DNA from: Deltaproteobacteria bacterium
GTDB lineage: Bacteria > Desulfobacterota > GWC2-55-46 > DRQE01
DNA: 64,000 bases
Direction: 5' to 3'
Assembly: GCA_024278765.1 (NCBI GenBank)
Contig: JAJRSM010000044.1
Coordinates: 5,972-69,971, forward strand
Positions within the stretch are counted from its first letter, which is position 1. Each line of letters begins with the position of its first letter. Made by a program: the position numbers and the translations under genes. Below are positions 2,384-49,934 of the stretch, one piece after another. A model generated the notes under the pieces. It saw only the letters and a list, made by a program, of their open reading frames with translations, ran no database searches and had not been told where the DNA came from.

Positions 2384-5969
<3,586 letters not shown>

Positions 5970-12791: not shown

Positions 12792-14140
12792 GGATTAAAG
12801 ATAATATTTTTACCGGTAAGGTGCTGGTACTACTCTTGTTCGCCTTTTTAGTTCGTTTGTTTATGTTGTATTTTTTAGGGGATACCCTTAACTTTGATTT
12901 GGGACATATTGCAAATCTAGAAAATTTACTGGCCGGAAACGGACTTTCGGATACGCTGGTCTCAGCTGACGGTACAACTACCTATCTGCCAACCGCAAGA
13001 GACCTGCCGTTACACGGATTGATGATAGCCGCCACATGGGTCTTGAGTGGTACGCGCAGCTTTATCTTTATCCAGCTGGTACAGATGGCGATCGATAGCT
13101 TTATGCTGGTGCTGGTCTATCTTATCGCCAGGGACCTTTTTGGAGAGAGGGTTGGTTTTTTATCGGCGATTTTATTTGCCTTCTACCTGCCTGAAGCATG
13201 GCTCTCCATCTATGTCAGAAGGGATATATGGGTTTCCTTTGCAACTATTTCTCCATTTTACGTTTGCCTGAAATATATCCGTACCGAGCAAATAAAGTAT
13301 GTAGTTTTAGCTGGAATAACACTTGGTTTGGGGGTTTACTTTAGATCCACCATGTTTTTTTTCCCTGTTGCTATTGGCGTAGCCATGTTGCTCTTTATCC
13401 GCTTTAGAAAGGCCGTTATAGCTGCTGTTATTATGACCGGCATTATAGTTGTATTTTTATCACCCTGGGCTATCAGGAACTATATGGTCTTTGACAGGTT
13501 CGTGCCTACCGAGGTCAACTTTAATCAATCGATCTGGGAGGGCTTTGGTGAGTTTCCAAACCCAGTGGGTGCGGTCAACAATGATGAGGCGACCTTCGAG
13601 CAGATGAGAAAAGAGGGTTTTACCGGTAGGCCTGCTTCATTTGAATATGAGGATTTTCTTGCTCCGAAGGTTAAGAAGGTTTTAAAGGAGCATAAGCTTT
13701 GGTACATAGGGACTATGTTTAGAAGGATTCCCAGGGCACTCCTTGTAAATCGCGTACCATGGGGAGTCTTTCAGGCTCGCACTGACCAGGTGGGTTTTCA
13801 TAAGATATACGCGCACAATAATCAAGAAAAAAGTGTGATAACCTACGCAAAGTATATGCTGAAGGTAAATCCAGGCTTCCTTATTACCAAAATTTTTGAT
13901 ACAGTTATCTTTTTCCTTGCTCTTTTTGGGTTGATTCTAGCACTTAAGGGGCGCAGTTCCAGGCGTAACGCCTTACTATTGACGGCAGCCCCGCTATACT
14001 TTATTATGATACTTATTCCAATTAGAATGGAGGGCAGGTATATTGTTGCTGTCCACTGGACTTTCTTGATATTTATGAGTTTTGCCCTTATTTATCTGAA
14101 AGACAGGTTATTGAGTTATCGCAGCAGGAGAAGGCTTTAG
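12785..14140 (+). CDS. GT-C fold membrane glycosyltransferase (GT39/ArnT-like), paralog 3.
   Basis: The polytopic N-terminus (DxxRDIWVS region) is followed by a C-terminal soluble domain and then TM segments. Confidence 0.55.
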   Translation: MVGIKDNIFTGKVLVLLLFAFLVRLFMLYFLGDTLNFDLGHIANLENLLAGNGLSDTLVSADGTTTYLPTARDLPLHGLMIAATWVLSGTRSFIFIQLVQMAIDSFMLVLVYLIARDLFGERVGFLSAILFAFYLPEAWLSIYVRRDIWVSFATISPFYVCLKYIRTEQIKYVVLAGITLGLGVYFRSTMFFFPVAIGVAMLLFIRFRKAVIAAVIMTGIIVVFLSPWAIRNYMVFDRFVPTEVNFNQSIWEGFGEFPNPVGAVNNDEATFEQMRKEGFTGRPASFEYEDFLAPKVKKVLKEHKLWYIGTMFRRIPRALLVNRVPWGVFQARTDQVGFHKIYAHNNQEKSVITYAKYMLKVNPGFLITKIFDTVIFFLALFGLILALKGRSSRRNALLLTAAPLYFIMILIPIRMEGRYIVAVHWTFLIFMSFALIYLKDRLLSYRSRRRL

Positions 14141-14141
14141 T

Positions 14142-14882
14142 ATGATTGAAAAGAAGAAGTGTAAGGTTGCCGTAGTGATGCCGGCATACAATGCTGCGCA
14201 GACTCTGGTGCGTACCTACAAGGCTATTCCTAAAGGGGTGGTAGATGAGATACTCTTGGTTGACGATAGCAGTCACGATGATACGGTAGAAATCGCCAAG
14301 CTCCTTGGTATAAAGACCATTGTTCATGAAAAAAATGTCGGGTATGGGGGTAATCAAAAGACCTGCTATACTCATGCCCTGGATGATCAATCCGATATTA
14401 TTATAATGCTGCATCCTGATTATCAGTATGATCCCAGCATTATACCTGACCTGATAAAGCCGATAAAAGAAGGCAGGGCCGATGTGGTCTTTGCATCCCG
14501 TATGCTTGGTAATCCGCTAAAGGGAGGAATGCCTCTTTATAAGTTTGTCGCCAATAAGTGTCTTACCAAGTTCCAGAATGTAGTATTTGGCACTAATTAT
14601 TCGGAGTTTCATACAGGATACAGGGCATTTAGCAGCAAGCTTTTGAGGTCATTGTCTTATCATACAAACTCAAATAACTTTATCTTTGATAATGAAATGA
14701 TAGCCCAGATAGTTATGAAGGGCTTTAAGATATATGAGATCCCTGTCAAGACCCGTTACGCTACGGATTCTTCATCGACAAGTTTTAAGACAAGCGTCAT
14801 CTATGGTCTGGGTATTTTAAAGGTCTGTGCAAGGTATTTTTTCCATAAGTATGGGATTAAAAAAGATTCTCTGTTTAATTAA
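14142..14882 (+). CDS. GT2 glycosyltransferase, polyprenyl-phosphate sugar synthase-like (GtrB/ArnC/DPM1-like).
   Basis: VAVVMPAYNAAQTL with a DDSSHDDT (DxD) motif fits the family, and the gene directly follows a GT-C gene. Confidence 0.75.
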   Translation: MIEKKKCKVAVVMPAYNAAQTLVRTYKAIPKGVVDEILLVDDSSHDDTVEIAKLLGIKTIVHEKNVGYGGNQKTCYTHALDDQSDIIIMLHPDYQYDPSIIPDLIKPIKEGRADVVFASRMLGNPLKGGMPLYKFVANKCLTKFQNVVFGTNYSEFHTGYRAFSSKLLRSLSYHTNSNNFIFDNEMIAQIVMKGFKIYEIPVKTRYATDSSSTSFKTSVIYGLGILKVCARYFFHKYGIKKDSLFN

Positions 14883-15959: not shown

Positions 15960-16751
15960 ATGAGTGAGATGAAGGTTGTGATACTGGCGGGCGGCACAGG
16001 GACGCGCCTTAGTGAAGAGACGTATCTAAAACCCAAGCCGATGGTTGAGATCGGCGGTAAGCCGGTGCTATGGCATCTTATGAAGCTGTACTCCCATTAC
16101 GGGTTTAATGATTTTATCGTCTGCCTCGGGTACAAGGGGTATATGATAAAGGAATATTTTGCCAATTATTTCCTGCATCAAAGTGATGTTACTATAGATA
16201 TCAAGAATAACTCTTTAGATGTGCATCAAAATACCGCAGAGCCGTGGAAAATAACACTGATTGATACCGGCGATGACTCAATGACCGGCGGTAGGGTTAA
16301 GCGTATCCAAAAATATACCGATGATAAGCCGTTTATGTTGACCTATGGTGACGGTCTTGGTGATGTTGATATCGCAGCTTTACTTGAATATCATAAGAGC
16401 CACGGCAGACTTGCAACCGTTACATCTTCTCAGCCATCGGGGCGTTTTGGGGCGTTGACGTTGGATGATAATGGTCAGATAGGGGCTTTTCAAGAAAAGC
16501 CGGACGGAGACGGGGGCTGGATTAATTCAGGTTTTTTTGTAATGGAGCAGGGCATCTTTGCCTATATAGAGGGAGACTCGACTCTGCTTGAAAGAGAGCC
16601 GCTGGAGAGGCTAGCCTCGGATAAAGAACTCTTTGCTTATAAGCATCATGGCTTTTGGAAGCCTATGGATACGCTACGCGATAAAAGAGAGCTGGAAGGG
16701 CTTTGGGACTCCGGCAAACCACCGTGGAAGATCTGGAAGGGACAAAAGTGA
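15960..16751 (+). CDS. rfbF: Glucose-1-phosphate cytidylyltransferase.
   Basis: MKVVILAGGTGTRLSEETYLKPKPMVEIGGKPVLWHLMK is close to the canonical RfbF sequence. Confidence 0.9.
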   Translation: MSEMKVVILAGGTGTRLSEETYLKPKPMVEIGGKPVLWHLMKLYSHYGFNDFIVCLGYKGYMIKEYFANYFLHQSDVTIDIKNNSLDVHQNTAEPWKITLIDTGDDSMTGGRVKRIQKYTDDKPFMLTYGDGLGDVDIAALLEYHKSHGRLATVTSSQPSGRFGALTLDDNGQIGAFQEKPDGDGGWINSGFFVMEQGIFAYIEGDSTLLEREPLERLASDKELFAYKHHGFWKPMDTLRDKRELEGLWDSGKPPWKIWKGQK

Positions 16752-17623
16752 GGATTTTGATCACAGGGGCTACTGGTTTTATTGGCAGCTCTGTTGCTAC
16801 CAGATTATTTGCTGACGGGCACAGACTTACGCTCTTGAAGCGTACAGGCTCGGATACCGGACGTATTAAAGATCTTTTGCACAAGGTCGCTGTCTATGAT
16901 ATTGACGTGCACAGTTTGGAGGAGATCATTGCAGGTGAGACCCCAGAGCTTATTGTGCATCTTGCGACTAATTACGGAAGGTCAGGGGAGAGCCCGATTG
17001 ATATTGTAGAGACAAATATTGGTTTTCCCTCGGCCCTTATTGATGCAGCCCTTAGAAGCGGTTTGAAATACTTTATAAATACCGATACGGCTGCACCGCA
17101 GGAGTATACATTCTACGCCTCTACGAAGAAGGCATTTCTGCATCCGCTTGGTTTTTTCTGTAAGGAAAAGGCCCTTAAGGTCGTAAGCTTAAAGCTTGAG
17201 TATGTTTACGGTCCTGGTGATGACGACAATAAGTTTATACCGTATATGATAAAGAGTGTCCTCTCAGGTGAAGAGGTCGATGCGTCTGGGGGCGAGCAGA
17301 AAAGGGATTTTATACATCTGGATGACGTTGTGGATGCATATGCCAGTGCGGTGGCTTCGATAGTCGAGATGGAAGAGGATTACATCTCTATCGATATTGG
17401 GTCTGGTCAGTCAATTAGCCTTAAAGCCTTTGCTTCTCTGGTCGCCGATTTTTCAACTATTGATATGAAGATCAACTGGGGCGCGCGACCTTACAAGAAA
17501 AATGAGATCTTTGACTCAAAGGCAGATATAACGAAAGCCGAAAAAATACTTGGTTGGCATCCGAAGCGTGCACTGCACGACGTTCTCAAGGATACTGTTG
17601 ATAGCTACAGGCAAGGTGCATGA
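16749..17623 (+). CDS. rfbS: CDP-paratose synthase-like SDR 4-reductase (RfbS/RfbJ family); a GTG start overlapping the rfbF stop is likely.
   Basis: The Rossmann motif VRILITGATGFIGSSV, a length of about 290 aa and its place within the rfbF-G-H-E set support the call. Confidence 0.6.
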
Positions 17624-18738
17624 CTGTGATGAACTGTTTTGATCAGGTCTATAAAGGTAAGAAGGTTTTTTTGACTGGGCACACCGGTTTTAAGGGAGCT
17701 TGGATTTCTTTGTGGCTCATAGAGCTTGGTGCAGAGGTCTTTGGGTATGCTTTAGAGCCACCGACCGAGCCGAGTCTTTTTGAGGCGGCGGGGCTAAAGG
17801 ATAAAATGGTTCATCATGTTGGCGATGTGCGTGATGCAGCTAAACTTAGTGCTGCTCTGCGGGAATTTGCTCCAGAGTTTGTCTTCCATCTTGCGGCTCA
17901 GCCCCTGGTCCGGCTTGGCTATAACGACCCGAAGCTTACCTATGAGACCAATATCATGGGGACGGTCAACCTCTTTGAGGCTGTTAGAGCGTGCCCGTCG
18001 GTAAGGGTAGTTGTAAACGTCACAAGCGATAAGTGTTATGAAAATATTGAGTCGGATTACGGTTATAAAGAAGATGACCCTATGGGTGGTTACGATCCGT
18101 ATAGCTCAAGCAAGGGCTGTGCAGAGCTCGTAACATCTGCCTACAGAAGGTCGTTTTTTAATGATGACGGCAGCGAAGGTGTAGTAGCTCTCTCATCGGC
18201 ACGCGCCGGTAACGTGATAGGCGGCGGAGACTGGGGCGATGATAGGCTCATCCCTGACTGCGTAAGAGCGATAGAGGCCGGCGAGGGTGTACAGATACGC
18301 AACCCAAGGGCCGTTCGTCCGTGGCAGCATGTCTTGGAGCCTCTCTCTGGTTATCTTACGCTCGGTGCGTTAAGCTACAGAAAGAATGCGGCCTATAGCA
18401 CTGGCTGGAACTTCGGCCCAGCTCCGGGCGAGGTGTTGACGGTTGAGGATATCGTAGGGCTTTTGGTGAAAGAGTGGGGCAAGGGTCGTCTGGAGATAGA
18501 TTCTTCCAGCCATCCGCATGAGGCAGGGCTTTTGATGCTTGATTGTAGTAAAGCCGAGGTAGATCTCGGGTGGTGTGCTGCGTGGGACGTCCAGGCGGCG
18601 ATAGAGAAGACAGCGGCCTGGTATAAGGCCTTTTATGAAGGTCAGAGCGTGCAACAGACCTATGATTATACACTCGGTCATATAACGAGCTATATTGAAG
18701 ATGCGCTGAAAAAGGGAATCGAGTGGAGTGGTAAATGA
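17620..18738 (+). CDS. rfbG: CDP-glucose 4,6-dehydratase.
   Basis: KKVFLTGHTGFKGAWISLWL is the canonical RfbG N-terminus. Confidence 0.88.
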   Translation: MTVMNCFDQVYKGKKVFLTGHTGFKGAWISLWLIELGAEVFGYALEPPTEPSLFEAAGLKDKMVHHVGDVRDAAKLSAALREFAPEFVFHLAAQPLVRLGYNDPKLTYETNIMGTVNLFEAVRACPSVRVVVNVTSDKCYENIESDYGYKEDDPMGGYDPYSSSKGCAELVTSAYRRSFFNDDGSEGVVALSSARAGNVIGGGDWGDDRLIPDCVRAIEAGEGVQIRNPRAVRPWQHVLEPLSGYLTLGALSYRKNAAYSTGWNFGPAPGEVLTVEDIVGLLVKEWGKGRLEIDSSSHPHEAGLLMLDCSKAEVDLGWCAAWDVQAAIEKTAAWYKAFYEGQSVQQTYDYTLGHITSYIEDALKKGIEWSGK

Positions 18739-20051
18739 GTAAAACCAAGGCAGCCGAACTAAAGGCTGAGATATTTAAAAAGGTAACCGAGTATTTTGAG
18801 GCTATTCACAGGGTAGAGCGTGAAGCCGTATTTGAGCCGGGTGTTTCAAAGGTACATTACGCAGGGCGTGTCTTTGATGATAGAGATATGATAAACCTTG
18901 TTGACTCAGCGATGGATTTTTGGCTGACGGCAGGGCCTTATGCCAGAGAGCTTGAGAAGAGTATGCGTGAGTTCTTCGGGGCCAGAGGTTTCTATCTGGT
19001 CAACTCCGGCTCTTCTGCAAACCTTGTTATGGTCTCGACGCTTAGGGCCGCCTCTTACAAAGGCCATCTCAAGCTTGGTGATGAGGTGATAACTCCTGCG
19101 GTTACCTTTCCGACGACCCTTACGCCTATCCTGCAGAATCAACTAGTCCCTGTCTTTGTCGATGCAGAGGTTGGCACATATAACATAGATCCGGCCAGGA
19201 TTGAAGAAGCAATAGGCCCTAAGACGCGCGCGATACTGATACCTCATACCCTTGGCAACCCGTGTAAGATGGATACGATAATGGAGATTGCCGCGAGAAA
19301 GGGGTTAGTCGTTTTGGAAGATTGCTGTGACGCACTGGGCTCTAGGTTTGACGGAAAGATGGTAGGAACTTTCGGGGCGATGGCCTCGCTTAGTTTTTAT
19401 CCGGCCCACCACATGACGATGGGTGAGGGCGGTGGGGTCGTTGTAAATAATCCTGAGTTTGATAAGATAGTACTCTCGGTACGTGATTGGGGTAGGGATT
19501 GCTGGTGCGAGCCGGGCCATAGCGGCACATGCGGCGAGAGGTTTACCGGTACCTTCGGCAAGCTGCCAAAGGGGTATGATCATAAATATGTTTACTCCAA
19601 CCACGGCTATAACCTTAAGGTCACTGATATGCAGGCAGCAGTGGGGCTCTCTCAATTTGATAAATTGGCGGGTTTTATAGAAGCCAGAAAAAAGAACTTT
19701 AAATATTATTATACAGAGCTTAGAGCGTTGGAAGATTATCTTGTTCTGCCAAGGTGGGAAGAAAAGGCAGACCCTTCGTGGTTTGCCTTTCCTGTAACGG
19801 TTAAGCAAGGCGTGGATTTTAATTCGCTTATACAGTATTTGGAAGATGCAAAGATAGAGACGCGCAAGGTCTTTGCCGGCAATATTCTGCGCCAGCCAGG
19901 CTTTACCTCAATAGAGCACAGGCTTGGTGGCAGCCTTGAAAATACGGACACGATAATGGACAGGACATTTTTTATAGGCGTCTATCCGGGGCTCACTCAA
20001 CCGATGATGGAGTTTGTTGCAGATACCTTTAAGGGTTTTTTTAGAGGCTAG
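18735..20051 (+). CDS. rfbH: CDP-6-deoxy-D-xylo-4-hexulose 3-dehydrase (E1), a PMP-dependent DegT-family enzyme.
   Basis: The DegT/DnrJ fold, a CxCx7C iron-sulfur motif (DCWCEPGHSGTC) and a 438-aa length match RfbH/DdhC. Confidence 0.85.
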   Translation: MSKTKAAELKAEIFKKVTEYFEAIHRVEREAVFEPGVSKVHYAGRVFDDRDMINLVDSAMDFWLTAGPYARELEKSMREFFGARGFYLVNSGSSANLVMVSTLRAASYKGHLKLGDEVITPAVTFPTTLTPILQNQLVPVFVDAEVGTYNIDPARIEEAIGPKTRAILIPHTLGNPCKMDTIMEIAARKGLVVLEDCCDALGSRFDGKMVGTFGAMASLSFYPAHHMTMGEGGGVVVNNPEFDKIVLSVRDWGRDCWCEPGHSGTCGERFTGTFGKLPKGYDHKYVYSNHGYNLKVTDMQAAVGLSQFDKLAGFIEARKKNFKYYYTELRALEDYLVLPRWEEKADPSWFAFPVTVKQGVDFNSLIQYLEDAKIETRKVFAGNILRQPGFTSIEHRLGGSLENTDTIMDRTFFIGVYPGLTQPMMEFVADTFKGFFRG

Positions 20052-20053
20052 CT

Positions 20054-21082
20054 ATGAAGTATTTGATTACAGGTGGATGTGGTTTTCTGGGTTCTAATCT
20101 AGCCTCAGAGGTTTTGGCACGTGGAGAAGAGCTGTGCATATTTGATAACCTCTCCAGAGAGGGCAGTGAACTGAACCTTGAGTGGTTGCGTAGCAAGGGA
20201 GAGTTTTTACTTGATAAGGGCGACGTACGAGACCTCGGTGTACTCGATAAGATTTTAAATGACTTTACCCCGGATGTTATTTTGCATCTGGCCGGTCAGG
20301 TCGCCATGACAACTTCTATTGCTGATCCCAGGCTTGACTTTGAGATTAATGCCCTTGGTACATTTAATCTGCTTGAGTCAGTCAGGCGAAATTGTCCTGA
20401 GAGTATTGTGATATACTCTTCGACCAATAAGGTCTACGGCGATCTTGAGTACCTTGAGTACAAAGAAGAGCCTACGCGCTATATATGCGAAGAGCGTCCT
20501 GAGGGACTAGGTGAAGATACGACCCTGGAGTTTCATTCTCCTTACGGTTGTTCCAAGGGAGCGGCCGATCAGTACATGCTTGACTACGCCCGTATCTTTG
20601 GGCTTAATACGGTCGTCTTTCGTCATTCGTCGATGTATGGAGGCAGGCAGTTTTCAACCTATGATCAGGGCTGGGTAGGATGGTTTTGTCAGAAGGCCCT
20701 TGAGATAAAGTGCGAGACGTTAAAAGAATCTTTTACAATATCCGGCAACGGTAAGCAGGTCAGAGACGTCCTGCATGCAGAAGATATGAAGCGTCTGTAC
20801 TTTGCAGCGATAGATAATATAAAGGACGCAAGAGGGCAGGCCTTTAATATAGGCGGAGGCATCGATAACAGCCTTTCGCTGCTTGAGCTCTTTGCATTGC
20901 TCGAAGAGATTCTGGATATAAAAATGGTCTATGATATTTTGCCGCCGCGCCGGAGCGATCAGAAGATATTTGTTGCTGACCTTGATAAGGTGCAAAAGCT
21001 TTTAAAGTGGAAGCCTCAGGTAAGTGCCAGGCAGGGGATAGAGAAGATGCTTGCATGGCTTGGTGAGGAAGTTAAGGGGTAA
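20054..21082 (+). CDS. rfbE: CDP-paratose 2-epimerase (CDP-tyvelose epimerase).
   Basis: Very strong resemblance to Salmonella RfbE across HLAGQVAMTTSI, YSSTNKVYGDLE and HSPYGCSKGAADQYMLDYARIFGLNTVVFRHSSMYGGRQF. Confidence 0.9.
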   Translation: MKYLITGGCGFLGSNLASEVLARGEELCIFDNLSREGSELNLEWLRSKGEFLLDKGDVRDLGVLDKILNDFTPDVILHLAGQVAMTTSIADPRLDFEINALGTFNLLESVRRNCPESIVIYSSTNKVYGDLEYLEYKEEPTRYICEERPEGLGEDTTLEFHSPYGCSKGAADQYMLDYARIFGLNTVVFRHSSMYGGRQFSTYDQGWVGWFCQKALEIKCETLKESFTISGNGKQVRDVLHAEDMKRLYFAAIDNIKDARGQAFNIGGGIDNSLSLLELFALLEEILDIKMVYDILPPRRSDQKIFVADLDKVQKLLKWKPQVSARQGIEKMLAWLGEEVKG

Positions 21083-21837
21083 TGGCTAAGATAGATCTGA
21101 GTATAATATTACCTGCTTATAAAGAGGCCGAGAATTTGAAGATTCTATTGCCCAAGATCAACAGCGTTATAAAAGGGCTTGGTCTAAACGGAGAGGTTCT
21201 GATTGTTGATTCAAAGAAACCGCTGGATCACACGCCGCAGGTATGCCGTGATAATAAAGTGAGACACGTGCCGCGTCTTGGCGACGATACATATGGTTCT
21301 GCCGTGCGGACCGGCATAGCTCGCTCTAAGGGCAAGTACGTTGTTTTAATGGATGCCGATGGTTCGCATACGCCGGAGTTTATAGAGAAGCTTTGGGCCT
21401 TAAGAGACAGCAGTGAGATCATCATTGCATCTCGCTATATAGCAGGCGGACATACCCATAACTCATGGCCTCTGGTGGCGATGAGCTATCTTTTGAATAT
21501 TGTTTATTCAAATCTACTCAGATTGCCTGTGACCGATATATCCAATAGCTTCAGGCTCTACCGTGGTGGCAAGCTAAGAAAACTGAGTCTGGACTGCGCA
21601 CATTTTGATATTCAGGAAGAGATACTCGTTAAGCTCCTCTGGAAGTACACGCAGAGCGTCAGTGAGATACCTTACGACTTCAAGAAACGCATTTCAGGCA
21701 AGAGCAAACGCGTCTTTGTTGTATTTGTATATAACTACCTCAAAAGTCTTGTGAAGTTATATAAGTTGAAAAAGAGTTACGGGGTAAAAGGGGCTGTCAA
21801 CCGCCACTTTGCAAATAAGCAGAGGTCAAAGCCGTAG
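21082..21837 (+). CDS. GT2 glycosyltransferase, DPM1/GtrB-like polyprenyl-phosphate sugar synthase.
   Basis: LSIILPAYKEAENL with a LMDADGSH motif fits the family. Confidence 0.75.
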   Translation: MAKIDLSIILPAYKEAENLKILLPKINSVIKGLGLNGEVLIVDSKKPLDHTPQVCRDNKVRHVPRLGDDTYGSAVRTGIARSKGKYVVLMDADGSHTPEFIEKLWALRDSSEIIIASRYIAGGHTHNSWPLVAMSYLLNIVYSNLLRLPVTDISNSFRLYRGGKLRKLSLDCAHFDIQEEILVKLLWKYTQSVSEIPYDFKKRISGKSKRVFVVFVYNYLKSLVKLYKLKKSYGVKGAVNRHFANKQRSKP

Positions 21838-21883: not shown

Positions 21884-23026
21884 ATGAAGACTCGTTTTAA
21901 GGTCGCTCAAATCGAATTAACAAACCACTGTAATATGAAGTGCCCTTTTTGTCCTCAACCAACGTTGATGACAAGAAAAAAGCTTTTTATGGACTTAGAT
22001 CTATATTATAAAATAATAGACCAGGTTGTTGAAGATAATCTGGCCGACTGTGTTTCGTTGACTGGTCTTGGTGAGCCTACTCTTTATAAAAAATTAATAA
22101 GTGCGGTAGAATATGCAACTGATAAGGGGCTATCTGTAAAGGTCTCGACCAATGGGTTACTTTTGAACGTCGAGACCTTGCTGAACCTTTACAGAGCGCG
22201 TTTGGATAATTTGTTCTTCAGCTTGCAGATAATGGATGAAGAGGCTTACCGTGAAAGGTTGGATGGAAAAAATAAGCAAACCTTTAAAGAGTATTTAGAT
22301 AACCTTAAAGTGATTATCTCAACTCATATACGGAACAATCCACAGACCAAGCTACGTATATCTATCATGGGCAACTGGTATCTGCCACATAAAAATATAT
22401 TGGGACTTAGGTATTTTAATTTATCAACTGATCTGTTGCGTGATTTTATTGAGCCGATCTTCTCTCTTATAGAGAGCGAGAGTTCTTTGAAAAAGAAGAG
22501 TTTAAAGTTGAGCTTGGATGATATAAAGATTCCCAGGTTTTATGAAAATGACAGGGAGTACTGGATACTTGATAATTTGTCACTTGTCCTTAAAGAGGCT
22601 AATGGATGGGCCAATTCTATGGACGCCTCCGATGACTATGTACTTATACCGGCTAAGAAAGGTTTTTGTGTAGCACAAAAAAACATGTTTGAGATTTTTG
22701 CTGACGGTACTGTCTGCCTATGCTGTTTGGATTATGACGCTAAAACAACTTTAGGAAAACTTACGCTTGGTGGGAATGAACGATTGGTAGATATTTTATT
22801 TGAAGGTCGTGGTAAGCAAATTAAGGATAGTTTTGATAAAGGCAATATTATTCTACCGTTTTGCCAGCGATGTCTTGGAAAACGTCGCCATAAAAAGAAA
22901 TTGGTACATTATGGTAATATGATAAGATTTTATCCATTTAAGGTTATGGATGTTATGCTTAAAAATAGAAGTTCATTAATGACGAGAATACGTTATTCTG
23001 TGATCAATAAATTTTTCAAGGTGTAG
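21884..23026 (+). CDS. Radical SAM enzyme with a C-terminal SPASM/twitch Cys-rich domain.
   Basis: CNMKCPFC (CX3CX2C) near the N-terminus and C-terminal Cys clusters (CLCC...CQRC) support the call. Confidence 0.75.
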   Translation: MKTRFKVAQIELTNHCNMKCPFCPQPTLMTRKKLFMDLDLYYKIIDQVVEDNLADCVSLTGLGEPTLYKKLISAVEYATDKGLSVKVSTNGLLLNVETLLNLYRARLDNLFFSLQIMDEEAYRERLDGKNKQTFKEYLDNLKVIISTHIRNNPQTKLRISIMGNWYLPHKNILGLRYFNLSTDLLRDFIEPIFSLIESESSLKKKSLKLSLDDIKIPRFYENDREYWILDNLSLVLKEANGWANSMDASDDYVLIPAKKGFCVAQKNMFEIFADGTVCLCCLDYDAKTTLGKLTLGGNERLVDILFEGRGKQIKDSFDKGNIILPFCQRCLGKRRHKKKLVHYGNMIRFYPFKVMDVMLKNRSSLMTRIRYSVINKFFKV

Positions 23027-23196
23027 GCTGAGGATAATGTTGATGCATGTTGCTGTGAGCGTGTATGTAACTTAGAATCCTTGGGTTTCCAACGCGAAGA
23101 CAAGTTTATAGGTTTGAAAGTAGTCAAATAGGTGGCTGGAGCGTAGCGATTGAAAATTAAGTATATATCACAAGTAGTAAAGATAGAGTTTTTTTT

Positions 23197-23799
23197 ATGG
23201 GACATGATGATATTATTGAAGACGACAGCGTGAAGTCCAAGGGTGCCCTAACTTGCTTGAATGTTGGATGTGGTAATGACATATTAGATGGGTATATTAA
23301 TCTTGATGCTGTAAAATTGGACGGGGTGGATGTTGTCCATGACTTGACCGTCTTTCCATGGCCTTTTGCTGATGATTATTTTGAAGAGATACGTATGATA
23401 AATGTACTTGAGCACTTGCCAGATACAGTCAAGGTCATGGAAGAGTTGTGGAGAATCTCAAAGGACGGAGCTAGCGTAGTCATACGTGTGCCGTACTGGA
23501 ATTGCTGGCAGTCCATAGGCGACCCCACGCACCTTAAGAGTTTTCATCAAAGAACTCTTGATTGCTTTGACCCATCAACGAAACAAGGCATGGAACGTTC
23601 TTATTATACAAAAGCGCGTTTTAAGATCAATTGCATTGGTTATTGGGTGCCTTTACTGCCTATTGAAGATGGTAGGGGCTGGTTTAAAGTAACTAATCCG
23701 GTTGCCAAGTTATTTATGACGGCCTTGTCTACATACCTAAGCAATATAATATGGGGACTGGAGTTTGAATTGATCACTTTAAAACATGAGAGGAAGTGA
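23197..23799 (+). CDS. Class I SAM-dependent methyltransferase.
   Basis: The LNVGCGNDILDGYINLD motif and a length of about 200 aa fit the family. Confidence 0.7.
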   Translation: MGHDDIIEDDSVKSKGALTCLNVGCGNDILDGYINLDAVKLDGVDVVHDLTVFPWPFADDYFEEIRMINVLEHLPDTVKVMEELWRISKDGASVVIRVPYWNCWQSIGDPTHLKSFHQRTLDCFDPSTKQGMERSYYTKARFKINCIGYWVPLLPIEDGRGWFKVTNPVAKLFMTALSTYLSNIIWGLEFELITLKHERK

Positions 23800-24007
23800 C
23801 GGATTTCGCAAGGAAGAGCCTTTTGATTTTGAGTCTCCAAGTGTGACTTTAATGAACTGGACCTTGGGGGGATCTGATAAGGAATATATATAACAGCCTG
23901 CCTGATAACGGTTGCTTTATATTGCTAGAAAAGGTTCTGGGTGACATTCCTATGACCAACAGACTTTTTATTGGAATTAAAATATCATAAGATTTAGAGT
24001 GTAAGAG

Positions 24008-25306
24008 ATGAAATTTGTTGAAAAAGTTTTTTTATTCCTTAAGGTAGAAGTAGCAGTTCACTTGTCTCGTATTGGCTTAAGGTTTATGCTCGCCGCGTTT
24101 ATGGGGCCTGCCAATTATGGTATTTTTGTTCTACTTAAATTAATTCCAGATTATAGTGAAAAGCTTGGTCGATTAGCAGTAGACGATGCAGCTATATATC
24201 TGGCCGGTAAAAAAGAATATCCAGTGAAGGAAGTAGCTTTCACATTGTTTTTTTTAATTCTTTTAATGAGTTTATTGTTTGTAATAATACTCTTATGGCA
24301 ATCGGAACAAATAGGTCAATGGATATTCAAAGATCTAACGATCGACAAGCTTTTGTTATGGATTATAATTATTAGCATTCCGCCGATTTTTTTAATTCGC
24401 TCTATGCTAAAACTTTTTCTTTTCCATGATTCTTTATTGATTTATAACTGTTTAGCTTTTTTACCTTCCTTATTGGGTTTATTGATAGGTTCTATTGCTT
24501 TTATAGTCTTCGATGCTGGTATTATTGGTTTGTTTATCTGTTTTGGAGTTATATATTTTATCGCTTTATTGATAGGTATGTTTTTTTATCTAAAGAATTT
24601 TGGTGTTACGCCTGTCTTTAAACCTGTTTTGGTTGCCAGATTGTTTGGATATGGCGGCAGGTTATATTTAGCAACACTTGCTAATTTTATTAAGAACAGG
24701 GTGGACATATTGATCGTCGCCTATTTTCTCACATCTAAGGAGGTTGGTTACTATGCTTTGGCCTTGTTGGTGATTACCAGCTTTAGCAGAATACCTGCTG
24801 TTGCCTCTATGCTCATATACCCTCTGTTAACTAAAAGAAAGCATGGTGAGGCAGTGAAAATGACAGTTAAAGCATGTAGGCATGTCTTCTTTATAGGTCT
24901 AATTTTTTGTGTCCCTATTTTCTTTGTTGTTAAGATATTAGTTGCTTCTTTCATGCCAAAAGATTATTCACTTGTACCTGGTATTGTACTTCTAGCTTTA
25001 CCAGGTGTGATTTTTACGGGCATCATCCCTTTATTGCAAAGTCATTTTTTTGGAACAGGGCGACCTAGTATTATTACAAAAGCTGTTCTATATAGCGGCA
25101 TTGTTTCTTTAGCGGGCAATTTTTTACTAATACCCAAAATAGGTTTGCTTGGAGCACCAGTGTCTTTTTCAATTTCGTCAATTTTCATGACTGTGTTAAT
25201 CTTAGTCAGATTCCTACAGGTTGAAGGTGTTAAACTAAAAGAGATATTTGCATTTAAGAAGGATGATTTGTCGCTTTATCTCAAATTATTTAAATTACAG
25301 AAATAA
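24008..25306 (+). CDS. wzx: Wzx-type oligosaccharide flippase (MOP/polysaccharide biosynthesis family).
   Basis: About 12 TM helices in 432 aa within a glycan locus support the call. Confidence 0.65.
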   Translation: MKFVEKVFLFLKVEVAVHLSRIGLRFMLAAFMGPANYGIFVLLKLIPDYSEKLGRLAVDDAAIYLAGKKEYPVKEVAFTLFFLILLMSLLFVIILLWQSEQIGQWIFKDLTIDKLLLWIIIISIPPIFLIRSMLKLFLFHDSLLIYNCLAFLPSLLGLLIGSIAFIVFDAGIIGLFICFGVIYFIALLIGMFFYLKNFGVTPVFKPVLVARLFGYGGRLYLATLANFIKNRVDILIVAYFLTSKEVGYYALALLVITSFSRIPAVASMLIYPLLTKRKHGEAVKMTVKACRHVFFIGLIFCVPIFFVVKILVASFMPKDYSLVPGIVLLALPGVIFTGIIPLLQSHFFGTGRPSIITKAVLYSGIVSLAGNFLLIPKIGLLGAPVSFSISSIFMTVLILVRFLQVEGVKLKEIFAFKKDDLSLYLKLFKLQK

Positions 25307-25476
25307 ATTTATTGTGGCTGATATTGTGTCTGTGATCATGAGTGTTTTAAGGGAATTATTGGTTGAAACCTAGCCTCTTAAATGTTGTATATTATAATAC
25401 TCCCCAAAATTTAGACAGCGGCATTTGTTGTATGATGGTCTGCCAAGATCAGTAAGGAGGCAGACGAGATGAAGAA

Positions 25477-25680
25477 GAAGCACGATGCGTCGTTCAAAGC
25501 TAAGGTTGCACTTGAGGCGATAAAGGGTGAGAAGACGCTGCTTAGTTATCAAGCCAGTACGGAGTCCACCCGAACCAGATAGGCCAGTGTAAAAAGCGTC
25601 TTCTGGAGGGTCTTACGAGGTTCTTTTCGGACAAGCGCAAGAAGTCCATATGGATATATAAACCTTTTATAAGAAACTGA
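25477..25680 (+). pseudogene. Frameshifted, truncated remnant of an IS3-family OrfA transposase (HTH_Tnp_1 type).
   Basis: Frame A reads MKKKHDASFKAKVALEAIKGEKTLL and then shifts; frame B continues QYGVHPNQIGQCKKRLLEGLTRFFSDKRKK, which matches the conserved FKAKVALEAL..GEKT...YGVHPNQI.QWKKQLLEG motif of IS3-family OrfA. Confidence 0.65.
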
Positions 25681-25685
25681 TTACT

Positions 25686-26438
25686 ATGACTGATAAAAAT
25701 TCATTGAATCTTTTTAGAGACCTTGATTCGGGTGCTTTTAAAAAGAAATTTATTTGTGAACTGAACTATGAATACAAGCCTCAGTTCAGTGTATTGTCTG
25801 AATTTGCAAGAAACCTGCTGAGTTTGACTTCTCCAGGTGCTATTGTGCTTGATATTGGAGCAGGCCGTTGTCAATGGAAGCGTCTTTTTACCGATTGTAT
25901 GTATATTGGTGTAGATAATTGTGTTGGTGATGATCAGTGGGAGTATAGTGCACTGGATTGTGTCGCTGATATTGCGAACTTGCCGATAAAGAGCAATTCA
26001 GTTGATGTTGTTATTTGCATGGCCGTGCTTGGCCATGTTCCTGAGCCGGGAAGGATTATAAGAGAGGCATATAGAGTCTTAAAACCCGGGGGCAGCTTTT
26101 TTTCTTTAAGTGAATTTGCCAAGGCTGAACATCAGGTGCCTTATGACTTTGTCAGGTTAACTGAGTTTGCACTGAAAAAATATACTGAAGATAGCGGTTT
26201 CTCTGTTGTCGATATATATGGTTCCAATTCATTTTACACATCAATTCTTAATCTTATTGAAAACTATACATGGAAGGTTTCGTATGGAGGGGTGAAGGCG
26301 GTGGTAAGGTTCTTACTTAAATTACTAATAAAATCAGGGTTGTTTGGCTTGCTTTATTGTATGTCGTCACGTAAAAAGACTGATCAGAATAATTTATTCC
26401 CTGTTTATTTTCTTACGCAATGTAAAAAAAATAAATAA
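25686..26438 (+). CDS. Class I SAM-dependent methyltransferase.
   Basis: VLDIGAGRCQW and VLKPGG motifs are present. Confidence 0.7.
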   Translation: MTDKNSLNLFRDLDSGAFKKKFICELNYEYKPQFSVLSEFARNLLSLTSPGAIVLDIGAGRCQWKRLFTDCMYIGVDNCVGDDQWEYSALDCVADIANLPIKSNSVDVVICMAVLGHVPEPGRIIREAYRVLKPGGSFFSLSEFAKAEHQVPYDFVRLTEFALKKYTEDSGFSVVDIYGSNSFYTSILNLIENYTWKVSYGGVKAVVRFLLKLLIKSGLFGLLYCMSSRKKTDQNNLFPVYFLTQCKKNK

Positions 26439-28775: not shown

Positions 28776-29930
28776 ATGAGAATTGCTATCTCAACTTGCT
28801 CTATGGTTAGTTGTGACAAGGATTTTGCAGGGACAGGGCTCGGAGTTTATCTGGATAACCTGGTCACCTTCCTTCAGAAAGAAGCTTCTGACGATCAGTT
28901 TTATATCTTTATGCCCGAGAGCCAGCGCCGATTTTTCAAAATAAAGCATAAAAACTTCAAAGCTATATATCTCAAGGAGTATACGAACAGGCTCATTCCA
29001 GGGCTTTTGTGGTACTTTTTTTTACTACCTTTGCTTTTGAAACGCTATAAGATAGATTGTCTGCATATACCTGACTTTAGAAGGTTTCCTTTGATAAAGG
29101 TATGTCCTATTGTCTTGACGATTCACGATATGACAAACTTTATAGTCAAAGGTCGTCTGACAACGACCAAGAAGATATATAGATATTTTATTAAGTATGT
29201 CTTCTCTAAATATGCAGACAGGATAGTGACCGTATCTGATAATACAAAGAAAGACGTTGTAAATGTACTCGGGATAGATCCGGCGAAGATTACCGTAGTT
29301 CATAACGGTGTCTCAAAAGAGTTTTGCGTGAGAGAGAGAAAAAGTGCTTTAAAGGAGCTTAAGTCCTTTGACCCACCTGAAAGGTCAATCCTTTACGTCT
29401 CACGGCTTGAGCATCCTTTGAAAAATCATATTACGCTGCTCAGGGCCTACGCAAGGTGCAAAGAAGAGAAAGATTTCGCTCATAAATTGATATTTATAGG
29501 TGAGAGGTGGAGCGGTCATGAGGCTATTTTTGTTGAAATAAAGAGGTTAGGGTTGGGCGGTGATGTCATTATGTTAGAGAAGATATCGTTTAAGGCCCTT
29601 ACTCGTTTTTATAATATAGCAGACCTGTTTGTATTTCCTTCTTTATATGAAGGGTTTGGACTGCCTGCGGTTGAGGCCCTTGCAAGCGGAGTGCCTGTTA
29701 TTGCCTCTGATACCTCTTCTTTAAAAGAGATCGTTGGCGGCTCAGGGCTACTCTTTAAGCCCGGAGATGACCTGAATTTATCTGAGCTGATATTAAAGGT
29801 TTTAGATGATAAAAACCTGCGTAGTGATATGATACAAAAAGGGCTTTCGCGCAGCTCCGAGTATTGTTGGAAGGCCGTGGCATCATCGATGTTAAGTGTC
29901 TATAGATCCAGCGCATCACGGGTTCAATAA
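28776..29930 (+). CDS. GT4 (GT-B fold) glycosyltransferase.
   Basis: The C-terminal FVFPSLYEGFGLPAVEALASGVPVIASD motif matches the EX7E region. Confidence 0.85.
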   Translation: MRIAISTCSMVSCDKDFAGTGLGVYLDNLVTFLQKEASDDQFYIFMPESQRRFFKIKHKNFKAIYLKEYTNRLIPGLLWYFFLLPLLLKRYKIDCLHIPDFRRFPLIKVCPIVLTIHDMTNFIVKGRLTTTKKIYRYFIKYVFSKYADRIVTVSDNTKKDVVNVLGIDPAKITVVHNGVSKEFCVRERKSALKELKSFDPPERSILYVSRLEHPLKNHITLLRAYARCKEEKDFAHKLIFIGERWSGHEAIFVEIKRLGLGGDVIMLEKISFKALTRFYNIADLFVFPSLYEGFGLPAVEALASGVPVIASDTSSLKEIVGGSGLLFKPGDDLNLSELILKVLDDKNLRSDMIQKGLSRSSEYCWKAVASSMLSVYRSSASRVQ

Positions 29931-29931
29931 G

Positions 29932-31407
29932 ATGAAGATAACCCTCATACTAATAGAGATAAGAAGCGATATTCCGGGCTTTACCGGCAATTATTATGAA
30001 GGCGTCGGGGCTGTCTCGGCGGCCTTGGAGGGTGCTGGTAATGAGGTGAGTTTCCTGCACCTGACGCGTACGATGGAGAGGGGCGAGTTCATAGCAAGGC
30101 TTGAGCAGGACCGGCCAGGTATGGTCGCCTTCTCGGCTATGACCAACGGCTTTCATTACGCCAAAGAGATGACCGGCTGGGTAAAGGAATATAGCAAGGA
30201 TGTGATCGTCCTTTGCGGTGGTATTCACGCAACGCTAGACCCTGAGGACGTCATTAAGGTCGGTGCTATCGACTACGTCTGCCGTGGCGAGGGCGAAGAT
30301 CCTATGGTAGAACTTTGCGATGCGCTTGATAATTGCAAGAGCCCTAATTATATCTCCAATATATGGCTTCGAGATGGCAAGAAGGTAATAAGAAATAAGG
30401 TTCGTTCGACATATCAGGATCTGGACCGTTTTCCGCACCCTGATCGTGATATATTTGATTTTGATAATCTTCTGACGACCAAGGAGAGTTTTGCTACCTT
30501 TCTTGGGGGGCGAGGCTGTCCTTTTGCCTGTGCGTACTGTGCCAACCACGGAATGAAGGACCTTTATCCGAATAAGGGGCAGTATATAAGGTTTAAGACC
30601 GTAGACCGCCTAATGGACGAGATAGAGGTTGTTTTAAAGCGTTATCCTTATATTAAATATGTTGCTTTCTCCGATGACATTTTGCCTCTCAAAATCGACT
30701 GGCTGCGCGAGTTCGCCGATAAATACAAGGCGCGTATAAATCGTCCTTTTAAGTGTAATATTAACCCTATGCTCGTAAAAGACGAGACGATATCTCTTCT
30801 GCGTGCCGCCGGGTGTACGATGGTGGAGATCGGCGTTGAGAGCGGTAACGAGCGGATCAGGCGCGAGGTCTTAAACCGTAAGATCACCAACGAGGGGATG
30901 CTCAAGGCGACGCAGTTAATTCGCAGCTATGGGCTTAAGATTGCTACCTATAATATGGTCGGCGTGCCGGGTGAGAGTATTCGTGAGATACGTGATACTA
31001 TAAAGCTCAACGGCCAGATCGGGCCAGAGAAGATGTATGCATTTATCTTTTATCCTTACCCGGGTACGCGTTTACATGCATTTTGCAAGAAGGAAGGACT
31101 CTTGACCTCTTCAAGGTTTGATACCTACGCAGAGGGTACGATACTTAAGAGCAAGACCCTCACGGAAAAAGAGGTCGTCTTTGGCCACAGGTTTTTCAAG
31201 AGCTTTGCCAAGCTATATAAGAAGGCCAACAAGATGCCAAGCCCTCTTAATAAGATTTTGATGAAGTTACTGGATATTATTATTGTTGCAAAGCTGCCGT
31301 ACGGGCTTTTGATATTTACTCACTCGGTACTATACAGGACTGCGAGCTTCATGTACCTGAAGTTTGGCAGATACATCTATAACAGGCAAAAGGCATACTA
31401 CGGATGA
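29932..31407 (+). CDS. B12-binding domain radical SAM enzyme (class B radical SAM, methyltransferase-like).
   Basis: An N-terminal cobalamin-binding-like domain (VIVLCGGIHATLDPED) is followed by a radical SAM core (GGRGCPFACAYC). Confidence 0.75.
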   Translation: MKITLILIEIRSDIPGFTGNYYEGVGAVSAALEGAGNEVSFLHLTRTMERGEFIARLEQDRPGMVAFSAMTNGFHYAKEMTGWVKEYSKDVIVLCGGIHATLDPEDVIKVGAIDYVCRGEGEDPMVELCDALDNCKSPNYISNIWLRDGKKVIRNKVRSTYQDLDRFPHPDRDIFDFDNLLTTKESFATFLGGRGCPFACAYCANHGMKDLYPNKGQYIRFKTVDRLMDEIEVVLKRYPYIKYVAFSDDILPLKIDWLREFADKYKARINRPFKCNINPMLVKDETISLLRAAGCTMVEIGVESGNERIRREVLNRKITNEGMLKATQLIRSYGLKIATYNMVGVPGESIREIRDTIKLNGQIGPEKMYAFIFYPYPGTRLHAFCKKEGLLTSSRFDTYAEGTILKSKTLTEKEVVFGHRFFKSFAKLYKKANKMPSPLNKILMKLLDIIIVAKLPYGLLIFTHSVLYRTASFMYLKFGRYIYNRQKAYYG

Positions 31408-37982: not shown

Positions 37983-38045
37983 ATGAAGCTACTCGTGACC
38001 GGCGGAGCCGGAAGAAGTGTTTGCTACAGGCAGGATATTAAATGA
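37983..38045 (+). other. Twenty-codon upstream ORF (MKLLVTGGAGRSVCYRQDIK) formed by a partial duplication of the 5' end of the downstream epimerase gene; its stop overlaps the real start (ATGA).
   Basis: Nucleotides 37983-38012 are about 85% identical to 38042-38071. Confidence 0.6.
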
Positions 38046-39175
38046 AGATACTTGTAACCGGCGGAGCCGGGTTTATTGGCTCTCATACTGTTGACGCACT
38101 TTTGCTTAAAGGGCATGAGGTGCGTATCCTCGATAGCTTTGAGAAACCAGTACATCTTAAGGGCAGGCCGAGCTATATACCAAAAGAGGTCGAGGTCATT
38201 GAGGGCGACGTGCGTGATAAGGCTGCGTGGGAAGAAGCCCTTGTTGGTATCGATGCAGTCTATCATTTTGCTGCTTATCAGGATTATCTGCCGGATTTTT
38301 CCAAGTTCTTTCATGTCAATAGCGTTGGGACTTCTTTGCTTTACGAGGTCGCTGTTGAACGTAAACTGCCGCTTCAGAAGGTAGTCGTAGCCTCTTCGCA
38401 GGCGGTATACGGCGAGGGCAGGCATAACTGCCCTGCCTGCAAGACGGCGTATTACCCTGATATCCGCAGTTCTGATGTCATGGATCGTGCGCAGTGGAAT
38501 CATAGGTGTCCTACCTGTAAAGGCCCTTTAGAGTTCAGTCAGACCGATGAGTCCCGTATAAATCCGCAGAACCAATACGCACTTAGTAAATATACGCAAG
38601 AACTTATAGCCATTAACTTTGGTCGTCGTTATAATATACCAACAGCTGCTATGCGCTACTCTATCGTACAGGGGCCGAGACAATCTTTTTATAATGCTTA
38701 TTCTGGGGCGTGTAGGATTTTCTGTCTGAGATATTTCTTTGATCGGTCTCCGGCGATATACGAGGACGGCAACCAAGTACGTGACTTTGTAAATATCAAG
38801 GATGTTGTAGCAGCCAATATTGCTGTTCTTGAAAGTGATAAGGCCGATTACGAGGTCTTTAATGTTGGCGGAGGCCATGCCTATACCGTCTTCGAGTTTG
38901 ACGCGACCGTCAGGAAGGTCTTTGGTAAAGAGGCCATGGCGCCGCGCATCCCAGGTGAATATAGGTTTGGCGATACTCGTCATATATTATCAGATGTGAG
39001 TAAACTTAAAGCCCTTGGCTGGAAGCCCGAATCTACGCCCGAGGATAGCGTAAGAGAATATATGGAGTGGTTAAAGAGTCAGGTCGATATCGAAGACGTC
39101 CTGGATTACGCAGAGCAGAAGATGAAGGATATGGATGTGGTTAGAAAGGCTGACCTAAAAGGAGATACCCTATGA
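38042..39175 (+). CDS. NAD-dependent epimerase/dehydratase (SDR) carrying an inserted CxxC...CxxC zinc-ribbon segment.
   Basis: MKILVTGGAGFIGSH is the SDR N-terminus; the insertion reads NCPACKTAYYPD...HRCPTCKG. Confidence 0.75.
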   Translation: MKILVTGGAGFIGSHTVDALLLKGHEVRILDSFEKPVHLKGRPSYIPKEVEVIEGDVRDKAAWEEALVGIDAVYHFAAYQDYLPDFSKFFHVNSVGTSLLYEVAVERKLPLQKVVVASSQAVYGEGRHNCPACKTAYYPDIRSSDVMDRAQWNHRCPTCKGPLEFSQTDESRINPQNQYALSKYTQELIAINFGRRYNIPTAAMRYSIVQGPRQSFYNAYSGACRIFCLRYFFDRSPAIYEDGNQVRDFVNIKDVVAANIAVLESDKADYEVFNVGGGHAYTVFEFDATVRKVFGKEAMAPRIPGEYRFGDTRHILSDVSKLKALGWKPESTPEDSVREYMEWLKSQVDIEDVLDYAEQKMKDMDVVRKADLKGDTL

Positions 39176-41449: not shown

Positions 41450-41452
41450 GTT

Positions 41453-49929: not shown

Positions 49930-49934
49930 TGTTG

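Follow-up and report, generated by a model that had tools for sequence, protein, structure and literature searches.

To our knowledge, nearly all that is understood of the chemistry that radical S-adenosylmethionine (SAM) enzymes perform on sugars comes from enzymes of antibiotic pathways, such as BtrN, DesII, BlsE, NeoN and HygY. Radical SAM genes are also often annotated in the capsule and O-antigen loci of anaerobes, yet these are uncharacterized. The capsule-associated gene cluster of Campylobacter jejuni HS:19, for example, contains uncharacterized radical SAM genes (PMC8743553). In the full-text literature, we did not find radical SAM and tyvelose together, and the combination of radical SAM, O-antigen and SPASM appeared only in unrelated work. 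Here we analyze a 64,000-nucleotide stretch from a Deltaproteobacteria bacterium (contig JAJRSM010000044.1; hereafter the window, with positions counted from its first letter), in which a gene for a 380-amino acid radical SAM enzyme (21884–23026, + strand) lies in a cell-surface glycan locus. Our reading, which we favor with modest confidence, is that the product is a functional, BtrN-related twitch enzyme that acts on a glycan precursor of the locus. What would be new is the recruitment to cell-surface glycan synthesis of a BtrN-like twitch enzyme that also has an insertion, a basic tail and one more conserved cysteine. It is neither a BtrN ortholog, nor a full SPASM enzyme, nor DesII-like, and finding such an enzyme here will not surprise a specialist.

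Three of the enzymes used for comparison come from aminoglycoside biosynthesis. HygY is reportedly, by the title of the paper that describes it, a twitch radical SAM sugar epimerase with a hydrogen-returning cysteine. BtrN (PDB 4M7T/4M7S) is the 2-deoxy-scyllo-inosamine (DOIA) dehydrogenase of the butirosin pathway. It belongs to the twitch radical SAM enzymes, and its Cys4-ligated auxiliary cluster is thought to take the electron (PMC9012708, PMC10337720). Its radical SAM cysteines are C16/C20/C23, and the twitch domain itself is a truncated SPASM domain that holds one cluster (PMC9012708). In NeoN, according to a secondary account, a non-ligand cysteine, Cys249, returns the hydrogen atom (as cited in PMC10991966).

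The radical SAM core and the auxiliary domain

The gene at 21884–23026 is real, and the membership of its product in the Radical SAM superfamily (PF04055) is far beyond chance. The open reading frame (ORF) is intact and starts with ATG, the antisense strand over the same interval is closed by many stop codons, and the Pfam Radical_SAM model matches residues 10–161 at 1.1e-19 (71.7 bits, against a cutoff of 29.5). The CX3CX2C motif, which the initial annotation of this DNA had placed in exactly this frame, is C16-N-M-K-C20-P-F-C23 (codons 21929–21952, + strand). An exhaustive HMMER search supplied the homologs, of which 40 with a single domain were aligned. Throughout this alignment C16, C20, C23, G63 and E64 are invariant, and the SAM-binding positions G63-E64-P65, T89-N90 and S113, which correspond to the GGE-like and ribose motifs, are invariant or at least 90% conserved. 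An AlphaFold2 (AF2) model of the protein has a mean predicted local distance difference test score (pLDDT) of 85.8 and a predicted TM score (pTM) of 0.86, and its fold resembles those of solved twitch enzymes such as BtrN.

The Pfam SPASM model makes a marginal match to residues 262–330 (7e-5, 23.5 bits against a cutoff of 21.5), and no Pfam domain beyond these two was found in the protein at E ≤ 1. The C-terminal cysteines are C262, C278, C280, C281, C327 and C330. C262, G275, C280, D283, C327 and C330 do not vary among the 40 homologs, and conservation of C281 is 90% or higher, so that the conserved auxiliary cysteines number four or five, compared with the seven or eight of a full SPASM domain with two clusters. 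The CX5CX3C motif of the second cluster was not found in the 380-residue sequence, which has no cysteine beyond C330. With conservation limited to C262-x12-G-x4-C280 and C327xxC330, and with no second-cluster motif, the auxiliary domain (C262-x12-G275-x4-C280, C281, D283 ... C327-x2-C330; 22667–22873, + strand) is a twitch rather than a full SPASM domain. The initial description of the protein as "SPASM/twitch," with auxiliary cysteine clusters, can thus be narrowed to a single-cluster twitch site, and the full SPASM half of that label is withdrawn. We hold the assignment to the twitch class with high confidence. The predicted iron-sulfur complement would consist of a SAM-binding [4Fe-4S] cluster on C16/C20/C23 and a fully cysteine-ligated auxiliary [4Fe-4S] cluster on C262/C280/C327/C330.

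Alignment and model agree on a variable insertion of about 90 amino acids (residues ~165–255; 22376–22648, + strand) between the radical SAM core and the twitch domain, which is not present in BtrN. The insertion is a poorly conserved block among the homologs, pLDDT falls to 55–84 within it, and BtrN is matched in two separate stretches on either side of it (profile positions 7–124 and 254–326). The protein ends in a basic, hydrophobic helical tail (residues 336–380; 22889–23023, + strand) with 11 lysine or arginine residues versus one aspartate or glutamate, modeled as a helix over residues 339–379 whose end has low pLDDT. This tail, net positive in nearly all homologs, may mediate peripheral association with the membrane. 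A strongly amphipathic C-terminal membrane anchor was considered and dropped, as the hydrophobic moment is only 0.37, a moderate value.

Comparison with BtrN and other studied enzymes

A profile of the family built from the 40 homologs and searched against all PDB sequences gave BtrN as its top match (3.6e-31, 111.7 bits), some 20 orders of magnitude ahead of BlsE (9.5e-12), which was followed by MoaA, SkfB, GDGT-MAS and PqqE. The alignment spans both the core and the twitch domain. In the core, G63-E64-P65 and T89-N90 line up with the YGEP and TNG of BtrN. In the twitch domain, BtrN C169, C187, C232 and C235 (the C of MSC, the C of LPC, and CknC; numbers counted from the printed alignment) fall on C262, C280, C327 and C330, and we take these four BtrN residues to be the ligands of its auxiliary cluster. 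BtrN Asp190 aligns with D283, and BtrN Phe188 with the family's Cys281. A Foldseek search of PDB with the AF2 model also ranked BtrN first (6.3e-12, target TM 0.71, ~16% identity in the structural alignment), followed by BlsE (1.9e-11) and DesII (2.7e-11), with SuiB, MoaA and viperin at similar E-values and SkfB also among the matches. Judged by these profile and structure comparisons, the closest studied relative of the family is BtrN.

The likeness to BtrN thus covers the C16/C20/C23 numbering, the four aligned twitch cysteines and the best profile and Foldseek scores, and BtrN itself has a carbohydrate-like substrate. The window protein differs in its ~90-residue insertion, its basic tail of ~45 residues and its Cys281 in place of Phe188, and its gene belongs to a cell-surface glycan locus. 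We exclude the possibility that it is an ortholog of BtrN, that is, a DOIA dehydrogenase, on the basis of the single-sequence score of 28.5 bits, the low structural-alignment identity and a gene context that does not fit; the annotated ORFs of the window include no 2-deoxystreptamine or butirosin genes.

BlsE (cytosylglucuronate decarboxylase) and DesII (TDP-4-amino-4,6-dideoxyglucose deaminase) are likewise radical SAM enzymes and act on nucleoside- or nucleotide-linked sugars. However, their structural scores here are no better than those of SuiB or MoaA (TM 0.4–0.55), and the genes adjacent to the radical SAM gene make neither a uronic acid nor a 4-amino sugar. DesII, moreover, has no auxiliary cluster. 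Because of this, and because the adjacent genes make no amino-sugar precursor, DesII-like deamination is unlikely. The window protein has an auxiliary cysteine site, and the DegT-family neighbor that might have played the part of DesI scores as RfbH (617.7 bits), reaching only 119 of the 650 bits required for DesI. Of the sugar chemistry proposed in the initial annotation, then, the kinship with carbohydrate-modifying enzymes finds support in the top three Foldseek matches, BtrN, BlsE and DesII, which are its closest characterized relatives, while the DesII-like deamination put forward there does not. NeoN and HygY, as aminoglycoside epimerases, offer a different parallel: they are small twitch enzymes that act on sugars, and the family's Cys281, which lies beside a cluster ligand, could be an analogous hydrogen donor. 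This likeness is a lead taken from the literature.

The full SPASM maturases (anSME, PqqE, SuiB and SkfB) share with the window protein a radical SAM core and the first half of the SPASM domain (Cx9-15Gx4C ... CxxC), and one might suppose that the gene encodes an anSME-like enzyme or a maturase of ribosomally synthesized and post-translationally modified peptides (RiPPs), which modifies a peptide or protein and is found in a glycan locus by chance. The Pfam SPASM domain is typical of maturases, SuiB and SkfB are among the Foldseek matches, the sub-cutoff NCBIfam matches include tungsten-cofactor enzyme maturase, PqqE and the sactipeptide maturase StsB, and some homologs are fused to TPR domains. 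Yet no NCBIfam model came near its cutoff, the best of them, tungsten-cofactor enzyme maturase, reaching 91 bits of the required 380 over the N-terminal core only. There is one auxiliary cluster site as opposed to the two of anSME, PqqE and SuiB, the cysteines of the second cluster being absent, and an N-terminal recognition domain (RRE/PqqD-like) is lacking, with the CX3CX2C motif beginning at residue 16. The gene also has no peptide or protein partner: no precursor-like ORF is present in the flanking intergenic regions, none of the small ORFs in 23000–25700 resembles a precursor peptide, although this is absence of evidence only, and no sulfatase, protease or RiPP transporter was found among the annotated ORFs of the window. 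We agree with the initial annotation that a RiPP system is not apparent here, and consider a role in peptide or protein maturation to be quite improbable.

The adjacent sugar genes and candidate reactions

Immediately upstream of the radical SAM gene, and ending 46 bp before it, is a tightly packed block in the order RfbF-SDR-RfbG-RfbH-TyvE-GT2, with gaps of −49 to +2 bp and all genes on the + strand. RfbF (15960–16751) is a glucose-1-phosphate cytidylyltransferase (TIGR02623, 423.5 bits against a cutoff of 300), RfbG (17620–18738) a CDP-glucose 4,6-dehydratase (TIGR02622, 470.5 bits against 278), and RfbH, or E1 (18735–20051), a CDP-6-deoxy-4-keto-glucose 3-dehydrase (NF011936, 617.7 bits against 423). 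Between the first two, a short-chain dehydrogenase/reductase (SDR) of 306 amino acids (16703–17623; Pfam Epimerase, 4e-34), whose PDB matches are only generic GalE-like proteins, is a candidate CDP-paratose synthase (4-ketoreductase). The fifth gene (20054–21082) encodes a CDP-tyvelose (paratose) 2-epimerase; it matches PDB 9rl0 with 522.9 bits and 1orr with 473.6, and both entries are named CDP-tyvelose 2-epimerase. The last (21082–21837) encodes a family 2 glycosyltransferase (GT2) of 251 amino acids (Pfam Glycos_transf_2, 1.1e-20) of the polyprenyl-phosphate type: its PDB matches are exclusively dolichol-phosphate mannose synthase (DPMS, 83 bits), ArnC and GtrB, and its top NCBIfam matches are all polyprenyl-phosphate sugar synthases, each below cutoff. 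The gene downstream of the radical SAM gene (23197–23799, + strand; Methyltransf_11 at 23.5 bits, with a cutoff of 21.2, and also Methyltransf_23) encodes a small methyltransferase-like protein of class I with 200 amino acids, so that the radical SAM gene does lie between a GT2 and a methyltransferase within a glycan locus, as first described. The block as a whole probably corresponds to the CDP-paratose/tyvelose pathway, followed by a GT2 that would load the sugar onto polyprenyl phosphate.

The canonical version of this route needs both E1 and E3 (PMC7851689). An E3, the RfbI/DdhD-type Fe-S flavoprotein reductase, was not found among the annotated ORFs of the 64-kb window, and the 3-deoxygenation step is accordingly represented by RfbH with no electron donor visible in the locus. 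The radical SAM gene directly follows the rfb block, and its product might be imagined to be an Fe-S protein that feeds electrons to RfbH for 3-deoxygenation, or that otherwise replaces E3, in an anaerobe. However, all of the SAM-binding motifs are kept, as in a true radical SAM catalyst, homologs are widespread without RfbH, and the GC content at third codon positions (GC3) of the gene differs from that of the rfb block. The E3 gene may also lie in another part of the genome, or a general ferredoxin or flavodoxin system may do its work, and we regard this substitution as very unlikely.

If the enzyme instead acts on sugars in the manner of BtrN, it would cleave SAM reductively to a 5'-deoxyadenosyl radical, which would take a hydrogen from a C–H of a sugar ring. 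Two outcomes can then be envisaged. The substrate radical may be deprotonated and its electron passed to the auxiliary cluster, which would yield a keto sugar, as in BtrN; or the extra conserved Cys281 may quench the radical from the opposite face, which would yield an epimer, as reported for NeoN and HygY. By analogy we infer dehydrogenation or epimerization, and any one reaction type can be put forward only tentatively. A first candidate substrate would be the paratose or tyvelose (a 3,6-dideoxyhexose) of the adjacent cassette, either as the CDP-sugar or once the neighboring DPMS/ArnC-type GT2 has put it on polyprenyl phosphate; a second would be the sugar handled by the adjacent small methyltransferase. 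The genomic context leads us to lean toward a glycan precursor of this locus as the substrate, and the enzyme probably makes an unusual sugar modification.

A more specific version of this proposal seems unlikely to us but would be consequential. In it, a membrane-peripheral enzyme remodels the polyprenyl-phosphate-linked 3,6-dideoxyhexose at the cytoplasmic face of the membrane, after the GT2 has acted and before flipping and transfer by a GT-C glycosyltransferase. The locus encodes a Wzx-like flippase (Polysacc_synt_3; 24008–25306, + strand; Pfam 1.2e-7) and a GT-C (PMT_2; 12785–14140, + strand; Pfam 7.4e-12), the latter a possible periplasmic user of a polyprenyl-phosphate sugar. In having a polyprenyl-phosphate-type GT2, a modifying enzyme, a flippase and a GT-C, the locus recalls the ArnC-ArnD-ArnE/F-ArnT and GacI-GacK-GacL systems, with the difference that the flippase here may simply be the repeat-unit Wzx. 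We know of no radical SAM enzyme in the Arn or Gac side-chain decoration systems. If this is true, the enzyme would stand where ArnD stands in the Arn pathway but work by radical chemistry, and would be the first radical SAM catalyst of envelope glycan decoration to act on a lipid-linked sugar; its product would be an undescribed sugar such as an oxidized, epimerized or further branched tyvelose.

The position of the gene after a complete-looking CDP-tyvelose cassette and a polyprenyl-phosphate glycosyltransferase gives a short list of candidate substrates, and the locus offers a well-defined test case for the roles of radical SAM enzymes in envelope glycan biosynthesis. A functional result would give the family its first assigned function and might show that the envelope of an uncultured Thermodesulfobacteriota lineage contains a rare sugar not seen before. 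The host presumably belongs to such a lineage and is presumably anaerobic, and it is probably sulfate-reducing; the MutS encoded in the window (47218–50007, − strand) is 54–57% identical to named Thermodesulfobacteriota/"Deltaproteobacteria" proteins from metagenome-assembled genomes (MAGs) and 77% identical to a protein from a hydrothermal vent metagenome.

Homologs, related loci and the rest of the glycan locus

The family has thousands of relatives in the radical SAM superfamily. At E < 1e-30, HMMER retrieved 21 cluster representatives, which are full length (320–390 amino acids) and ~25–33% identical to the window protein, together with one C-terminal fragment at 64% identity; the window protein falls within this family over residues 9–354. 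A word-indexed search returned only the protein itself and weak N-terminal matches, and no close relatives emerged when metagenomes were scanned with the single protein. A genome scan with the family alignment yielded the best 80 genomic homologs, from Desulfomonile, Nitrospina, cyanobacteria, Acidobacteriota and Anaerolineae, with identities of at most 33% among the matches listed. Recurrent neighbors are rubrerythrin in cyanobacteria and TPR proteins in Desulfomonile, and IMPDH also appears; in Nitrospina, LeuA and a methyltransferase are always upstream of the homolog and an ABC-F protein is often downstream; in MAGs of Nitrospirota, Deltaproteobacteria and anammox bacteria, the homologs have B12 radical SAM genes and one for a DedA/VTT-domain protein in their vicinity. 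Several homologs (P0022, P0033, P0051, P0069, P0088 and P0101) are fused to GT4-like, sulfotransferase or long TPR-array segments. A conserved association between the radical SAM gene and rfb genes was sought in the 80 homolog loci and rejected, with no instance found; the wider family is not tied to the rfb pathway.

The closest relative, the 64% fragment, is encoded on the metagenomic contig L090 (positions 2–664), where it is followed by an ortholog of the small methyltransferase (56%) and then by a B12 radical SAM gene. The small methyltransferase is the only neighbor in the window that is also kept beside this relative. A pairing of the two genes across the wider family was considered and set aside, since it was seen only on L090, and the methyltransferase, which has 217 homologs, occurs without any radical SAM gene in L091, L094 and L095. 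In these last three loci the pair of small methyltransferase and flippase is kept.

Four metagenomic loci reached through homologs of the small methyltransferase (L091, L092, L094 and L095) share with the window (12785–34344) a backbone consisting of GT2, GT-C, methyltransferase, a variable slot, small methyltransferase, flippase, methyltransferase and glycerophosphotransferase, which continues into an alcohol dehydrogenase-GFO oxidoreductase fusion and WecG where the contig extends that far (L091). The slot is empty in L091 and L092, holds YdjC and methyltransferases in L094, and holds a FemAB-like protein, YdjC and GNAT in L095; in the window it is filled by the rfb block, the GT2 and the radical SAM gene. 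The radical SAM gene thus sits in a hypervariable decoration cassette of a surface-glycan locus. Because L092 and L096 have other, distant radical SAM/SPASM genes of their own (31% and 25% identity), radical SAM enzymes appear to recur as accessories of such loci.

Base composition follows a boundary within this cassette. GC3 is 0.47–0.52 from RfbF to the GT2, and beyond the radical SAM gene, whose overall GC content is 0.36, it is 0.43 in the small methyltransferase, 0.30 in the flippase and 0.33 in the methyltransferase that follows. Intergenic gaps across this low-GC island (21884–26438) measure 46, 170, 208 and 379 bp. Because of these GC3 values, the radical SAM gene groups in composition with the low-GC methyltransferase-flippase segment and not with the rfb block.

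A number of these results weigh against a BtrN-related sugar enzyme that serves this locus. With respect to BtrN, a PDB search with the single sequence matches it at only 8.4e-6 (28.5 bits) and over the core alone, not above GDGT-MAS or PqqE, and identity in the structural alignment is only ~16%. The core region aligns to BtrN by BLASTP with 30% identity over 67 amino acids (2e-10); the twitch region of the window protein alone gives no significant BLASTP match to BtrN (E = 0.065), so the BtrN link is a property of the family. There is no characterized ortholog, and the proposed activity draws on comparison with other enzymes. With respect to context, GC3 falls from 0.51 in the GT2 to 0.37 at the radical SAM gene and the intergenic gaps widen there, such that the gene may not have arrived with the rfb block or be co-translated with it. 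Tyvelose is already served here by an NAD-dependent 2-epimerase, so the need for further chemistry is not evident. The best 80 genomic homologs (~30% identity) lie mostly outside glycan loci, beside unrelated genes, and the TPR or sulfotransferase fusions could point to protein substrates. Finally, the relative on L090 has an in-frame stop at the equivalent of residue ~173, on a contig that ends upstream and has 3.8x coverage; this copy is either a pseudogene or the result of a sequencing error.

Some of the same evidence bears on the possibility that the enzyme is seated at the membrane by its basic tail and modifies a lipid or lipid-linked intermediate, its target being the polyprenyl or lipid portion, or a lipid of the membrane, in place of the sugar ring. 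The best single-sequence match in PDB is the lipid-modifying GDGT-MAS (2.6e-6), the surroundings of homologs include B12 radical SAM genes and one for a DedA/VTT-domain protein, the family as a whole keeps the basic C-terminal tail, and the neighboring GT2 would make a lipid-linked sugar. However, the GDGT-MAS match is limited to the generic core, residues 6–142, whereas the profile search prefers BtrN by 20 orders of magnitude, and the protein has no transmembrane segment and an unremarkable hydrophobic moment in its tail. We judge lipid modification to be improbable. It is less probable still that the gene is a horizontally acquired passenger with no function in the locus. Its low GC and GC3 relative to its neighbors, the wider intergenic gaps and the in-frame stop in its closest relative would fit this idea, but the frame is full length with all catalytic and cluster residues intact, the gene is on the same strand as its upstream neighbor and 46 bp from it, and its low GC is shared with the adjoining flippase and methyltransferase. 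Low GC is usual for the serotype-specific genes of glycan loci.

We therefore retain the reading of a BtrN-related twitch enzyme acting on a precursor of the locus, whose remaining genes are described briefly here. All genes from 2360 to 42058 are on the + strand, forming a glycan locus of ~40 kb. Besides those already mentioned, it encodes a Wzy-like protein, several methyltransferases, a TagF-like glycerophosphotransferase, WecG, a priming transferase and heptose-nucleotide genes. A second GT-C (PMT_2; 4461–5969) and a second small DPMS-like GT2 (14142–14882) are present, and the two small GT2 proteins (14142–14882 and 21082–21837) are only 20% identical. The occurrence of two GT-C and two small DPMS-like GT2 proteins suggests two separate branches of lipid-linked side-chain decoration.

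Farther downstream is a cobalamin-binding class B radical SAM enzyme (29896–31407, + strand; Pfam B12-binding, 4.7e-21; Radical_SAM, 1.2e-26), whose best NCBIfam matches are HpnJ, BchE and PhpK-type, all below cutoff. A B12 radical SAM gene is directly 3' of the small methyltransferase on L090 (1238–2812), L092 (8595–10205) and L093 (944–2461), an arrangement that suggests radical C-methylation or a similar reaction on the same glycan. In the window, the B12 radical SAM gene is followed by a fusion of a zinc alcohol dehydrogenase and a GFO/IDH/MocA oxidoreductase (722 amino acids; 31404–33572, + strand), which is kept on L091 (13639–15831) as a 730-amino acid protein and is followed there by WecG. 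A fusion of a NeuB-family (sialic-acid-synthase-like) protein and a C-terminal cupin (7321–8868, + strand) lies between a GFO oxidoreductase and a HAD phosphatase, and at the equivalent position L092 has its distant radical SAM/SPASM gene. A 37-codon ORF (25469–25582) was considered as a remnant of an IS3 transposase (OrfA N-terminus-like) and discarded as unsupported, with HTH_72 at E = 0.076 as its only Pfam match. The locus ends with a heptose-nucleotide set (SDR, GHMP kinase, nucleotidyltransferase, SIS isomerase and histidine phosphatase; 38042–42058, + strand), and beyond it a XerC/D-type tyrosine recombinase (42374–43285, − strand) lies where gene orientation and GC skew both switch.

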